28,492 bases of DNA, taken from positions 1 to 28,492 of the forward strand of contig JACCYX010000450.1 of NCBI GenBank assembly GCA_013696265.1, in the 5' to 3' direction. The notes beneath the pieces were generated by a model. That model searched no databases. It saw only the letters and a list, made by a program, of their open reading frames with translations, and was not told where the DNA came from. Source of the stretch: Chloroflexia bacterium. Its GTDB lineage: Bacteria; Chloroflexota; Chloroflexia; Thermomicrobiales; UBA6265. The translations under genes and the position numbers were made by a program. This document shows positions 3,519-10,363 of the stretch, one piece after another; positions within the stretch are counted from its first letter, which is position 1, and every line of letters starts with the position of its first letter.

Positions 3519-4655
3519 CTACCTGACCCGCGCCCGTAACGTCTCGGCCATGGCTTCGACGCGTTCGCGGTCGATCGCGTAGTACTTCATGCCGCGCCTG
3601 GGCTCGACCTGGATTAAACCGGCCCGCTCCAGTTGCGAAAGATGCCGGGAGACCGCCGATTGCGCGATCCCCAGCCGGCCAACGATTTCCTGGGCGTAGA
3701 GTTGCCCGCTGCTGAGGAGGTCGATAATGCGAAGACGGTTGGCATCCCCCAGGGCGCGCAGCATTTCGAGGAGATCGTCTCCCGACAGGGCCGGGATCGC
3801 GACCCCGTTTTCCGGGTCGGGCCGGAAGGATTCCAACTCGACTTCCGGCACACCCAATCCGGCGCCAGCCGCGACTACGTTTTGGGCACTGAAAAAGACC
3901 ACCAGGTCGGGCGGGTAACTGATGTAGCTGACGAAGGCGCCGATGTGCGCGGACGGGCAAAAGGTGACGCTCGCCACCTGGTTCAGGCCCGCCGCCAGCG
4001 TCGATGGCAGGCGATTGCCGGTCAGTTCCGCGAACGCCAGGCCAAAGCCGCGGCTGGCCTCGATCCGGGCGATTCGCTCCGCTTCTTCCAGTTCGCCGCG
4101 CCGTTGCTCGTATTCATCGCGGTAGACCGCGTCCCACACCCCGCGGATGAGCCGCATCGTCCGCCACTTCAGTTGTTCCGGATCGCGGATCAACTGCACC
4201 ACGTCGGCGGCGGCGGCGGTGGTCAGGCCGGGTTCGACGTAGCGATACCAGGCGTTTTCCTCATCGAGCGAGGGGGCGGCGAGGCCGGTTCCCAGGTCCT
4301 GGTGAACCCGATCAAGGGCGCCGATCGCCATCTCCCGGTAGTCGTGGGCGGGAAGCTCGCCAAGGAACCAGAGCAGGTCGTCGATCGAGGCCGGCAGGCG
4401 ATCCTCCCGCAACGGGTCGAACCGCATGATCGGTTCTTCCATGTAGTAGAGCAGCCGGCCCGAGAAGCCATGCAAAACATCCAGGTCTTCCTGAAGTTGC
4501 CGGGGCAGGGCCCGCCGGGCGCCGATCAGCCAGCGGTCCAGCCCGCTACCGGGCACGGCCCGGTACAGCAGCGACATGACGGAAACCATGTCGAGCGGAA
4601 TCGAGATCGCGGTTCGTACTTGCAGCGCGGGACGTCCGACGACGAGTTCGCCCAT
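3519..4655 (-). CDS. ArsR/SmtB-family transcriptional regulator with long N-terminal (DUF5937-like) domain
   Basis: C-terminal LRALGDANRLRIIDLL...EIVGRLGIAQSAVSRHLSQLERAGLI winged HTH; ~290-aa N-terminal domain. Confidence 0.9.
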   Translation of the reverse strand: MGELVVGRPALQVRTAISIPLDMVSVMSLLYRAVPGSGLDRWLIGARRALPRQLQEDLDVLHGFSGRLLYYMEEPIMRFDPLREDRLPASIDDLLWFLGELPAHDYREMAIGALDRVHQDLGTGLAAPSLDEENAWYRYVEPGLTTAAAADVVQLIRDPEQLKWRTMRLIRGVWDAVYRDEYEQRRGELEEAERIARIEASRGFGLAFAELTGNRLPSTLAAGLNQVASVTFCPSAHIGAFVSYISYPPDLVVFFSAQNVVAAGAGLGVPEVELESFRPDPENGVAIPALSGDDLLEMLRALGDANRLRIIDLLSSGQLYAQEIVGRLGIAQSAVSRHLSQLERAGLIQVEPRRGMKYYAIDRERVEAMAETLRARVR

Positions 4656-5039: not shown

Positions 5040-5088
5040 CGGGCATATGGCGGTGAGATACGCATCCACGCGGCGACTGGAGGTCACC

Positions 5089-6174
5089 ATGCCCGATCGG
5101 CCCGATTCCAGCAACCAGGTGCCTCCGGACCATGTATCCCGCTTTCGGGGCCGGGATGGGGTCACCGATGATGAGCGCGAGCAGCCGCCGTATGGCAGCG
5201 AGGCGCTTGCCCGGATTGAATCGGAGGCGCGGAACAACCGCCCCGCCCAACTCGACTTGTTCGCGGTCGGCGACGGTGGCGCGTTCATCCAGGAGGTGGG
5301 TGGGCTGGCGCCGCTCGCCGCCCGCTCCAGCCTCGACCTCGCGCGAACGACATACCGCCGGCATCTGGAGGCGCTCAAACGGCCGCGCAACACGATCGAA
5401 TCCTACAGCTACGACCTCAACGTGCTCGAGCACCTGATCGGCCCCAAACCGCTCAACCGGATCGAGCGGCGGGACATCGCCCGGTACCTGGGCGATGCCT
5501 CCAGCAAGACCACCCGGAAACGGCGGCTGACTTCGGCGCGTCGCTTCTTCCGCTACCTGATCGATGACGTCAAAGTCCTTAAGTTCGATCCGACCGAGGG
5601 CTACTATCCGCACGCCATCGCCTTGCGGGCACCGGCGCCGCTCTTCGAGCAGGAACAGCGTGACCTGCTGGAGGCGGCCCACGCCGACGAGGAGTGGAGC
5701 GCGCTCGCGGTCTGGCTGATGATGCGGCTGGGCTTGACGCGCGCCGAGTTGCTGGCGTTGCAACGGGATCACATCGACCGCACCAACCCGCTCGAACCCG
5801 TCGTGTACGTGGCCTACGACTCCGCCGCCAAGCAATCGAAAGACCGGAAGCTGGCGGCGGATCGAGCCTTCGCGGCGCTCTACGACGCCTTCCTGGAGGC
5901 GCGGGAGCCCACGGGAATCCTGTTTCCCGTTGGACCGCAGGCCGTGAACGGCATGATCGAGCGGCTGCGGCGAGCGGCGAACATCACGAAAGACGTGTCG
6001 CCGCAAACACTGCGCACGACCTTCGCCGTCGAGCAAGCCAGGGCGGGCGCCGACCAGCAACAGTTGTTGGCCCTGCTGGGATTGGTGAACGATCCCCGCA
6101 ACCGGGCCAGCGTCGATCGCTACCTCGCCCTCGCGTCGCCACCGCTCGAGACCGCTGTTCCGGACCGTCCATGA
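5089..6174 (+). CDS. Tyrosine recombinase/integrase-fold protein with degenerate active site
   Basis: SAM-like N domain (RNTIESYSYDL...IARYL...TRKRRLTSARRFFRYL) and catalytic-domain boxes (LGLTRAELLAL, VSPQTLRTTFA, LLGL...VDRY). SD GGAGGT precedes ATG 5089; in-frame ATG 5047 is an alternative start. Confidence 0.88.
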   Translation: MPDRPDSSNQVPPDHVSRFRGRDGVTDDEREQPPYGSEALARIESEARNNRPAQLDLFAVGDGGAFIQEVGGLAPLAARSSLDLARTTYRRHLEALKRPRNTIESYSYDLNVLEHLIGPKPLNRIERRDIARYLGDASSKTTRKRRLTSARRFFRYLIDDVKVLKFDPTEGYYPHAIALRAPAPLFEQEQRDLLEAAHADEEWSALAVWLMMRLGLTRAELLALQRDHIDRTNPLEPVVYVAYDSAAKQSKDRKLAADRAFAALYDAFLEAREPTGILFPVGPQAVNGMIERLRRAANITKDVSPQTLRTTFAVEQARAGADQQQLLALLGLVNDPRNRASVDRYLALASPPLETAVPDRP

Positions 6175-6187
6175 TGGGACAACCACG

Positions 6188-6712
6188 GTGACAACTGGTC
6201 AGCTCGTGGTGATCGGCCTGCGGCTGATCGTGCCGCTGCTCATCCTGAGGCGACCGTTGGCGGGCGGCATCGCCGCAATGCTGCTCGACGCGACGGACGT
6301 GATCATCGTCGAGATTTTCGGTCCGGGCGGGATGGGCGCACATTACCAGAATATTGATAAAGGGCTCGATCTCTGGTATCTCGGGCTCGAAGCCTACGTT
6401 TCGCTGAGCTGGACCGAGCGCGTACCACGCCTGATCAGCATGTGGCTGTTTGGACTGCGACTCGTCGGTGTAGTGCTGTTCGAACTGAGCGGGTGGCGCC
6501 CGTTGCTCTTCCTCTTTCCGAATCTCTTCGAAAACTGGTTCCTGTTCGTGCTCGTGATCTGGAGATTCTTCCCCAACGTGCGGCTCGATACCTGGCGAAG
6601 GTGCCTGGCCTGGCTCACCGTGCTGTACATCCCGAAACTCGGTCAGGAATACCTCCTGCACGTCGCCGAAGCGCAACCCTGGGCGTGGCTCAAGGACCGG
6701 CTGGGCATTTAG
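6188..6712 (+). CDS. Hypothetical integral membrane protein (CDP-alcohol phosphotransferase-like Asp pattern)
   Basis: 174 aa, about 5 hydrophobic segments, LLDATD...YQNIDKGLD; GTG start 13 nt after the recombinase stop. Confidence 0.8.
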   Translation: MTTGQLVVIGLRLIVPLLILRRPLAGGIAAMLLDATDVIIVEIFGPGGMGAHYQNIDKGLDLWYLGLEAYVSLSWTERVPRLISMWLFGLRLVGVVLFELSGWRPLLFLFPNLFENWFLFVLVIWRFFPNVRLDTWRRCLAWLTVLYIPKLGQEYLLHVAEAQPWAWLKDRLGI

Positions 6713-6847: not shown

Positions 6848-7771
6848 TCACACTGACTCCGTATCGGCGTCCCAGGCGAGGAGTTGGGCCGCCAGCGAAC
6901 GTATCTCATCGACATCGTGCAGGACGTCGAGCCAACGCGCCGGGAGCGCGGACGCGCCGTACTCCGCCCCGGCCAGGGCGCCGGCAACCGCTCCGGTGGT
7001 ATCCGAGTCGTGACCCAGCGCCACGGCCCGCACGATCGTCTCCTCCGCGGAATCGGTCGAGAGGAGAGACCAATATGCGGCGTTCAACGTATCGAGGACG
7101 TAGCCGCCCGACAATACATCCGCTCGATCCATGTCCGGCGCCCGCCGGATGGCGTCAACAACACGATCCTCGCCAATTCCCTCGATCGAGGCATCGACCA
7201 GGGAGTCGCGGTGTCCGCCACCCAGCAGGTGGACAATGCCCTGGTTGAGCGCCACCGCACCCCAGGTTGCCCGGGGATCGGCGTGCGTCATCCGCGATGT
7301 CTCGATCGACGACCACCGCAACCGCTCGGGATCGGACCGGAACCGCGCCGCCAGCGGCGCGCAGCGCATCACCGTTCCATTTCCCGCGACGCCATCAACG
7401 GAGGTCCGCTGCAGGCGTTCGCCGGCATCTTGCCACGGCACGCCCTGGGCGATCAGTTCCAGGGCGCGATCGGTGGCAAGGCCGATATCCTTCGGTCCGG
7501 ACCGATACCAGGCGACAAGGTTTGCGGCCACGGCGTCGAGATCGATGCCGTCGCGCGTGCAGCCCCGCGCGATGGCCAGGGCCATCTGCGTATCGTCCGT
7601 GTACTCGCCCGGTTCGAGACGATGCGGACCCCCGCCCACAATTTCGCGGATTCCATCGGGAAACGACCGGTCGAGATCGTTCCGATCGCGAAACTCGACG
7701 GCGCCACCGAGCGCATCGCCGCAGGCCAGCCCAAGGAGGCATCCCGCCGCCCGGTCGTCGAGACCGGTCAT
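6848..7771 (-). CDS. ADP-ribosylglycohydrolase (DraG/ARH family)
   Basis: GLACGDALG, YTDDTQM, DIG, GNGTVMRCAP, TH and GHDSDTTGAVAGALAGA motifs. ATG at 7771 overlaps the upstream stop (ATGA). Confidence 0.95.
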   Translation of the reverse strand: MTGLDDRAAGCLLGLACGDALGGAVEFRDRNDLDRSFPDGIREIVGGGPHRLEPGEYTDDTQMALAIARGCTRDGIDLDAVAANLVAWYRSGPKDIGLATDRALELIAQGVPWQDAGERLQRTSVDGVAGNGTVMRCAPLAARFRSDPERLRWSSIETSRMTHADPRATWGAVALNQGIVHLLGGGHRDSLVDASIEGIGEDRVVDAIRRAPDMDRADVLSGGYVLDTLNAAYWSLLSTDSAEETIVRAVALGHDSDTTGAVAGALAGAEYGASALPARWLDVLHDVDEIRSLAAQLLAWDADTESV

Positions 7772-8841
7772 GGCCGCATCGCCTGGTGAAGATCGCCGGT
7801 GGCTCCTCCCAATGCCGCGACCGTTTGGGGATCGGCGCCCGCGCGAATCGCCGGTTCGACGATATCCGGCATGAGATCGGGCACCCAGGAGACGAGCGCG
7901 ACGCACGGTTCCAAAGCCGTCAGGATCGACGGGCGTTTCGATGGCCAGACCACGGCCGACGAACCGCGGCCGATCCTCAAGTCATTCACGTTTGCCTCCC
8001 CTTCGAGCATCGTGACCACGCCGAGGCTGCCGGATTTCGAGATTTCCAGGGATCCGCCCCGCGGCAGAGCGATCCGTTCGAGCGCGAATGGGCGGCACGC
8101 GGCGAGAAGATGCCGTTCCCCGATCGCTGGCCGAAGCGAAACGGGAGAGATGAGTTCGGGAATCGACTGGAGTTGGGCCACCGCGAACCCCGCGTCGAGA
8201 TGCACCTCGCGGGGGTTGCCTTCGGCGTCGACCCGACCCCAATCGTCGAGCCGGTAGGTGATGTCGGACGGTTGCTGCACTTCGTAAACCATCACCCCGG
8301 CGCCGAGCGCGTGCACGGTGCCGGCGGGAATGAGGACCGTGGTGCCGGGCCGGGCCGGGACGGTTCGCATCATGCGCGCCGATGAGCCATCCAGCCGGGT
8401 AGCCGCCTCCTGAAACTCGGCAAGGCTCACGCCGGGCCGGATTCCGAGGTAGAGTACCGAACCGGGATCGGCTTCAAGTATGTGCCAGGCTTCGGTTTTC
8501 CCGAGCCGGTCCAGATGCGCGGCCTGGCTGTCGTCTGGATGGACCTGGATCGACAGGTTTCCCCCGGCGTCGATGAGCTTGACCAGCAAGGGGAAAACCG
8601 GCCGGCCACCGACCGCGTCGTGCGCTGTCGCCCCAAGACGTGCCGACGGATCGGCCTCGACGATTTGCCCAAGCGTCTGGCCCGCCAGGTAGCCGGTCGA
8701 AACAACCGCCTCGCCGGCGGTAATCAGCGCCTCGCCGATGGGCTCGCCTAGGGGCAGCGCAAGCCCGTAGCGGCCAAGCTTGCGCCCGCCCCAGGGCTTG
8801 CTATCGAGACGCGGCGAGACGAGGGAAACGCGATTGTCCAA
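7768..8841 (-). CDS. manA: Type I (class I) mannose-6-phosphate isomerase, cupin
   Basis: KPWGGRKL, IGEA, FPLLVKLIDA...LSIQVHPDD, GKTEAW, IPAGTVHAL, EVQQPSDITYRLDDWGR. Probable TTG start at 8841 with GGAG upstream (8856 is an alternative). The ORF-track extension to 10179 is antisense to manC. Confidence 0.93.
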   Translation of the reverse strand: MDNRVSLVSPRLDSKPWGGRKLGRYGLALPLGEPIGEALITAGEAVVSTGYLAGQTLGQIVEADPSARLGATAHDAVGGRPVFPLLVKLIDAGGNLSIQVHPDDSQAAHLDRLGKTEAWHILEADPGSVLYLGIRPGVSLAEFQEAATRLDGSSARMMRTVPARPGTTVLIPAGTVHALGAGVMVYEVQQPSDITYRLDDWGRVDAEGNPREVHLDAGFAVAQLQSIPELISPVSLRPAIGERHLLAACRPFALERIALPRGGSLEISKSGSLGVVTMLEGEANVNDLRIGRGSSAVVWPSKRPSILTALEPCVALVSWVPDLMPDIVEPAIRAGADPQTVAALGGATGDLHQAMRP

Positions 8842-10145: not shown

Positions 10146-10363
10146 TGGGGAGGGCGAGCGAGCCGTTAATCCGAACCACGCGACGACGCGCGGCTCCCGG
10201 GCGCCTGTCCAGAGCGCAGCATGGGACCCTCCCGCCTGGTCGCCGGTCCCCAAGACCCCGGTTCGTGGCTCAGCCTGGGGTGACGAGGCATCGCGGGAGG
10301 GCATACGCGGGCCAATGCCTTGTAGCGAAAGGTGGCATTAACGAGCCCGCTAGCCCTCCTCTA
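10146..10363 (-). ncRNA. Candidate 6S-like structured RNA
   Basis: Ends pair over about 22 bp (10147-10170 with 10337-10361). Central asymmetric bubble, perfect 9-bp inner stem (10227-10235/10293-10301) plus further pairing. Intergenic between convergent genes. TATGGT -10-like hexamer on the minus strand at 10375-10370. Confidence 0.5.

Follow-up and report, generated by a model that had tools for sequence, protein, structure and literature searches.

The Xer-like gene and its neighbours

The window analysed here, a stretch of 28,492 nucleotides from a Chloroflexia bacterium, carries a gene for a protein of the tyrosine-recombinase fold (hereafter the Xer-like protein). The gene stands between a divergent gene whose product ends in an ArsR-type HTH and a gene for a hydrophobic 174-residue protein, beyond which lies a convergent ADP-ribosylglycohydrolase-like gene (Table 1). 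The codons of the pentapeptide QLDLF are in frame with the listed open reading frame 5047..6174. The true start of the Xer-like gene is almost certainly the ATG at 5089, because a GGAGG lies just upstream of this codon and because most homologues are 361 residues long and begin with MPD... at the equivalent methionine. QLDLF therefore occupies residues 54-58 of a 361-residue protein.

Table 1. Features of the Xer-like gene and its surroundings (positions in the window)
Feature	Coordinates	Strand	Remarks
378-aa protein, C-terminal ArsR-type HTH	3519..4655	-	PF01022, residues 305-349; divergent from the Xer-like gene
GGAGG ribosome-binding site	5079..5083	+	5 nt before the ATG at 5089
Xer-like tyrosine-recombinase-fold gene, 361 aa	5089..6174 (including stop codon)	+	Pfam, fold match, >600 homologues
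Predicted disordered N-terminal tail	5089..5325	+	Residues 1-79; AlphaFold2 pLDDT 41-64
Second conserved tail island, S-R-F-R-G-R-D-G-V-T..E-R..P-P	5137..5190	+	Residues 17-34
QLDLF, candidate beta-clamp-binding motif	5248..5262	+	Residues 54-58; CAA CTC GAC TTG TTC
SAM-like core-binding domain	5356..5565	+	PF02899, residues 90-159 (104-173 of the 375-aa reading)
Catalytic-type domain, remodelled active site	5647..6090	+	PF00589, residues 187-334
T217/R218	5737-5742	+	Active-site positions of the Xer-like protein
K251	5839-5841	+	Active-site position of the Xer-like protein
Q306	6004-6006	+	Active-site position of the Xer-like protein
R309	6013-6015	+	Active-site position of the Xer-like protein
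L332	6082-6084	+	Active-site position of the Xer-like protein
Y345	6121-6123	+	Just past the end of the PF00589 match
174-aa protein	6188..6712	+	Starts 14 nt after the Xer-like gene; hydrophobic sequence
ADP-ribosylglycohydrolase-like gene	6848-7906	-	Convergent neighbour; identity read from sequence

Neither flank of the gene shows a conserved association with a function in replication. The 378-residue protein, whose ~300 N-terminal residues have no Pfam match, is a syntenic neighbour only in L040, L036 and L037, all of the window's own taxonomic family (f1). The 174-residue protein, for which no Pfam or PADLOC match was found, is likewise conserved at this place in f1 only (71% identity in L036 and L040); its hydrophobic sequence indicates that it may be located in the membrane. 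A homologue of the ADP-ribosylglycohydrolase also adjoins the Xer-like gene in families f1 and f3 (L036, L039, L042), and this adjacency is probably merely conserved gene order. The neighbours in family f4 are GGDEF/HD-GYP and AAA_33 genes. Across families f1, f3 and f4 there is no conserved partner gene, and synteny points to no replication gene. A search with Rfam at gathering thresholds detected no RNA family anywhere in the window, positions 10146-10363 included, and the upstream non-coding DNA of the relatives is too diverged for alignment.

The Xer-like protein has a recombinase core with a remodelled active site

Both recombinase domains scored above their Pfam cut-offs (PF02899, 34.7 bits with a cut-off of 22.3; PF00589, a weak yet significant 42 bits with a cut-off of 27.1), and the closest solved structure by sequence was XerA (5HXY). 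An AlphaFold model of the protein has a core with a pLDDT of ~90. Foldseek assigned this model a probability of 1.00 to XerA, the best match, and also to Tn1549 Int, IntI, lambda Int, XerH, Cre and XerD. The protein scored far from the equivalog models of the resolvases, reaching 67.9 bits on the XerD model (TIGR02225, cut-off 329.6) and 54.9 bits on the XerC model (TIGR02224, cut-off 335.15), and a score of 29.1 on the model of the streptococcal XerD-like proteins (NF002685, cut-off 178) showed that it is not a member of that group.

The active site was read from an alignment to XerA 5HXY together with a profile alignment of 276 sequences. The catalytic set R-K-H-R-H/W-Y is replaced by T217 (with R218 one position on), K251, Q306, R309, L332 and Y345, in agreement with the original prediction, which had called the recombinase degenerate. 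Complete mutagenesis of the Cre active site has shown that the tyrosine and the lysine are indispensable, that His-II is dispensable and can be replaced by an active glutamine (the residue found there in ~1% of natural sequences), that the Trp/His-III position is tolerant, and that the change of Arg-I to lysine (R173K) is active in vivo only (PMC2943603). By analogy, the active site of the Xer-like protein is remodelled but not obviously dead; residual chemistry would be possible because the lysine and the tyrosine, both indispensable in Cre, are kept.

The motif lies on a predicted flexible tail

QLDLF had been described as part of an N-terminal extension ahead of the SAM-like domain, and both a direct reading of the sequence and the PF02899 match confirm this position. 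In the AlphaFold model the tail has a pLDDT of 41-64 overall, as against ~90 in the core, and values below 50 at residues 51-58. A second model was built, from a separate alignment, for the distant homologue P0146, in which the motif lies at residues 7-11, and here too the pLDDT of the motif was below 50. The confident core begins 20-25 residues after the motif in both models. Across homologues, between 19 and 78 residues separate the motif from the core, in a linker that is rich in proline and not conserved. As modelled, low pLDDT combined with a variable linker is what would be expected of a short docking peptide that is flexibly tethered.

The motif is conserved throughout the Thermomicrobiales

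The background frequency of the motif was taken from a six-frame scan of the 2.97-Mb assembly (65% G+C, 69% complete; 3.1 million residues in frames of at least 100 aa). It gave two matches to QL[SD]LF and ten to QLxLF, most of them in wrong frames; one match fell inside a folded protein that, judging from its sequence alone, we take to be FabZ. Approximately one QL[SD]LF is expected per proteome, and the single occurrence of QLDLF is not beyond chance. The conservation of the motif across homologues is far beyond chance.

Among close homologues (62-95% identity), Q-[LM]-x-L-F was found at the same place in 113 of 120 proteins, most often as QLPLF (44), QLDLF (37) or QLALF (21), and in the remainder as QLTLF, QLSLF, QMALF or QMSLF. 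Five of the seven other proteins carry a six-residue form (QLALDL, QLTLDL or QLALAL). A review of the clamp defines its binding motif as Q-aliphatic-x-[L/M]-[F/L] or Q-aliphatic-x-[L/M]-x-[F/L], with QLxLF and QLxLxF as the strongest forms (PMC11139829). QLDLF of the Xer-like protein satisfies the first of these patterns, and by the review's definition the motif is present in 118 of the 119 close homologues that could be aligned. The original prediction had proposed conservation of QLxLF across homologues as its check and absence of the motif from homologues as grounds for refutation; the check was strongly positive, and the homologues do carry the motif.

In an alignment of 30 sequences, no variation is seen at Q54 and L57, and conservation is at least 90% at L55 and F58. 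Position 3 is free (D, S, A, P or T), such that the conserved elements are the glutamine and the Leu-Phe pair, which are the anchors of known clamp-binding motifs. The residues flanking the motif vary freely, and in the rest of the 79-residue tail R30 alone is invariant, with M1, D23, T26, E29 and E44 nearly so. The codons of the motif also vary synonymously (CAA or CAG for the glutamine, five different codons for the leucine at position 4, TTC or TTT for the phenylalanine), indicating that the peptide, rather than a DNA element, is under selection.

At the level of the whole order, QxxLF is found at the same place in ~72 of 80 species-level Thermomicrobiales genomes. The Sphaerobacter and Nitrolancea clades have QPPLF, QPSLF or QAELF, i.e. 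Pro or Ala at position 2, which falls outside the strict reviewed definition, though E. coli alpha itself has QADMF.

A second island of conservation was observed within the tail at residues 17-34, where R30 is invariant and D23, T26 and E29 are at least 90% conserved. This island, possibly a further docking peptide, was seen only among the closer homologues from the Thermomicrobiales.

The motif persists in distant relatives with altered active sites

A profile search was performed against 1.84 billion representatives, and proteins of less than 50% identity were kept and classed by their active-site signature. For many of these distant proteins the profile alignment begins right at the motif (e.g. 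M-K-D-QLDLF, M-A-D-T-QLSLF and M-D-E-QLALF). Counting altered-site proteins below 50% identity that have a tail of at least 8 residues, 40 of 62 carry the motif at their N-terminus, whereas shuffled tails gave 1.26 on average and never more than 5 in 1000 trials, which amounts to a 30-fold enrichment. Near-variants such as QLSLW, QLSFF, QLSLPSL, QLPLPGL or DLPLF occur in around ten of the other 22. The motif is still present below 30% identity, where its flanks are fully diverged. Tail and motif were found in none of the 23 canonical R-K-H-R-H Xer sequences, and all motif carriers have a remodelled active site (T/K, K, Q/E, R, L and usually Y). The amino acids of the motif are conserved over a deep radiation, and the motif is restricted to altered-site clades.

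Genes fetched from other Chloroflexota families gave a similar picture, with an N-terminal QxxLF in 14 of 20. Twelve of these have the signature K-K-[R/K/Q]-Q-R-L (eleven aligned through the tyrosine) and two have K-R-R-Q-R in an alignment that ends early. An altered-site subfamily of Chloroflexota with the signature K-K-K-D-R-[IV] showed no tail, no motif and no tyrosine in the six genes fetched. Source names were available for few of the distant members; they read Chloroflexota twice and, once, a 'Candidatus Binatia' MAG.

A maximum-likelihood tree was calculated from the core only (tail removed, quick search, rooted for drawing only). The canonical Xer sequences fall on one side of a branch with an SH-aLRT value of 95, and motif carriers occur in all four altered-site clades, one of which has lost the tyrosine. 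The motif is therefore at least as persistent as the nucleophile. In an alignment of 27 sequences at 25-46% identity, whose rows were chosen for the motif and which is illustrative only, the glutamine and the phenylalanine of the motif are two of nine invariant columns.

Two further observations concern the architecture of distant members. The subclade lacking the tyrosine (P0153, P0171, P0228 and P0237, and loci L058, L060, L065-L067 and L069) has a C-terminus of the form ..LRWT.A...GLS.I.W..., and several of its members keep QLxLF. A metagenomic representative of 1051 aa, P0235, has an altered-site Xer-like domain at residues 746-1016, preceded by a long N-terminal part that starts with residues resembling the glycine loop of a Ser/Thr protein kinase.

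The gene is a single-copy core gene alongside a canonical Xer

The Xer-like gene is present in single copy in 106 of 121 sampled genomes of the order and in 40 of 43 genera. This tally includes four unpublished genomes (G095, G076, G035 and G015), all of which match; without them the count is 102 of 117. The gene was absent, even at an E-value of 1e-6, from genera g2 and g5 (G004, G019, G073 and G085; completeness 86-97%), both of which belong to f1. This absence suggests a lineage-specific loss, and the gene would therefore not be essential. Given the tail-less K-K-K-D-R-[IV] subfamily and the two genera without the gene, tethering to the clamp, if real, is not a universal feature, nor is the gene indispensable.

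In each of five near-complete relatives there is a single strong canonical Xer, scoring 259-288 bits on the XerD model, together with other integrases. Because a separate canonical Xer is present, the Xer-like protein is an extra paralogue. Each of these relatives also has a second-tier integrase-like gene (119-145 bits on Xer models), and the Xer-like protein could be the missing XerC partner.

A reading of the gene as part of a mobile element or a defence system was considered and rejected: it is a single-copy core gene with no PADLOC match and no plasmid relative at 1e-10. No repeats flank it.

The putative partner of the motif, a full-length DnaN of 380 aa, is encoded in the assembly (G000:C261:1113-2255; E-value of 8e-51 to solved clamps). 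In a relative, a DinB homologue (L044, G041:C1, 1423-2643, + strand) has QLTMF ~40 residues before its C-terminus. This is likely a clamp-binding motif followed by an extra C-terminal segment, and it makes a plausible positive control from the same order.

A model for clamp tethering and its alternatives

We propose, with a probability of roughly 0.65, that the Xer-like protein is a Xer-derived site-specific DNA-binding protein tethered to DNA-loaded clamps through QLDLF. According to this model, QLDLF would sit on a disordered tail ~25 residues ahead of the DNA-binding core, and the tail would insert the Leu-Phe pair and the glutamine into the hydrophobic cleft of DnaN. The protein would then be held on clamps that are loaded on newly replicated DNA or have been left there. 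Its site-specific DNA binding would be concentrated on replicating or just-replicated DNA, and a slow or cleavage-biased strand chemistry might possibly be concentrated there too. The sequence comparisons and the structural models support the interpretation of the tail as a clamp-docking peptide offered by the original prediction, and whatever the protein does on DNA is probably coupled to replication. We infer the binding to DnaN and everything downstream of it, including a role in replication or repair.

Some caution is appropriate, as five residues are short and a conserved short peptide could serve another partner. Conservation and disorder show that QxxLF is functional, but they name no partner. 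The peptide might instead serve as a short linear motif that docks on another protein, be it the cell's own canonical Xer, FtsK, SMC-ScpAB or a neighbouring protomer in trans. Tyrosine recombinases are regulated by contacts between protomers, which exchange C-terminal segments, and the proline found at position 2 in some homologues is atypical for strong clamp binders. However, the clamp motif is matched in every detail by the conservation of Q1, L4 and F5, by the freedom of position 3 and by the six-residue variants, we know of no other bacterial docking motif with the pattern Q-x-x-L-F, and the tail is not docked onto its own core in either AlphaFold model. We regard another partner as unlikely, though deserving to be kept in mind.

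It is more doubtful still that the motif is a structural element that becomes ordered only when the protein is on DNA, such as a DNA-contacting strand or arm added to the core-binding domain. Some integrases do have N-terminal arm-binding domains, and the first AlphaFold model contains short low-confidence strands at residues 58-60 and 66-68. However, a linker that varies so widely in length and is both Pro-rich and unconserved fits a fixed structural element poorly, and Q-x-x-L-F is hydrophobic and uncharged, unlike a DNA-contacting segment. Finally, a pentapeptide could have arisen by chance and been inherited by close relatives without any function. The background frequency permits such an origin, with two QL[SD]LF matches in the six frames of the organism's own assembly, but persistence below 30% identity, the enrichment over shuffled tails and the synonymous codons all argue against it, and we consider this explanation extremely improbable.

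Implications of the clamp-tethering model

A broader and more tentative proposal, which we would not yet favour, is that the Chloroflexota contain an undescribed, widespread Xer-derived class whose alternative active site is fixed as K/T, K, Q/E, R, L, with Y present or absent, and that carries out a clamp-tethered, replication-coupled site-specific transaction. If true, this would be a DNA transaction without a described counterpart in model bacteria, such as clamp-directed marking, nicking, SMC unloading or unlinking behind the fork. Polymerases, ligase and mismatch-repair proteins are among the known partners of the bacterial clamp, as are Hda-type regulators, some transposition proteins and a few phage factors. 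A recombinase-fold protein with a housekeeping role would be a new class of clamp client, and the site-specific chromosome action of the Xer world would be linked directly to replication. The Xer-like family is large, comprising hundreds of clusters, and it belongs to the core genome of at least one order in a major phylum that has been little studied. The many 'XerC/XerD' and 'integrase' annotations given to these Chloroflexota genes are wrong as to function. Among the partners covered by the 2024 clamp review there are no matches for recombinase, integrase, transposase or Xer (PMC11139829), and no paper linking a tyrosine-recombinase-fold protein to the clamp was found in the literature searched.

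Comparison with known systems

The Xer-like protein shares with the chromosome-dimer resolvases XerC, XerD and XerA a two-domain fold and a chromosomal, single-copy, vertically inherited gene; it differs from them in its T/R-K-Q-R-L-Y active site and in the additional 79-residue tail. The sequence of its motif is identical to one engineered into E. coli in the dnaE-M3 allele, where the change was reportedly intended to strengthen clamp binding. This allele of Pol III alpha has QADMF changed to QLDLF (10.1101/676486).

The closest parallels for the placement of the motif are Hda and MuC. Hda carries an N-terminal clamp motif, QL[SP]LPL. MuC of phage Mu, a DNA-binding transcription factor, has a near-consensus N-terminal QHDLF that tethers it to DnaN (10.1101/2025.01.04.631326). 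In these proteins, as in the Xer-like protein, a peptide of the Q-x-x-L-F type lies on the flexible N-terminal end of a DNA-associated protein. In contrast, no protein of the tyrosine-recombinase fold is listed among the clamp partners in the 2024 review, and clamp binding by the Xer-like protein is a prediction.

Proteins that rearrange DNA have also been found to use the clamp. One of them is the transposition protein TnsE of Tn7. IS transposases bind the clamp as well (PMC4549789). Here, a DNA-rearranging type of protein is directed to replicating DNA via the clamp, as is putatively the case for the Xer-like protein; however, TnsE and the IS transposases belong to mobile elements, whereas the Xer-like gene is a single-copy core gene with neither flanking repeats nor plasmid relatives.

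Lastly, there are precedents for a recombinase fold that has been kept as a site-specific binder or bender of DNA while catalysis is reduced or absent. The SMC-unloading role of B. subtilis XerD is reportedly independent of catalysis. XerD unloads SMC at the terminus in a sequence-specific manner (Karaboja 2021, cited in PMC12322038). TnsF is an inactivated tyrosine recombinase that serves as a target selector (PMC10293859). The Xer-like protein resembles these two and the streptococcal XerD-like proteins (NF002685) in this respect. It is unlike them in its clamp-binding motif, none having been reported for the others, and in retaining the lysine, Arg-II and the tyrosine.
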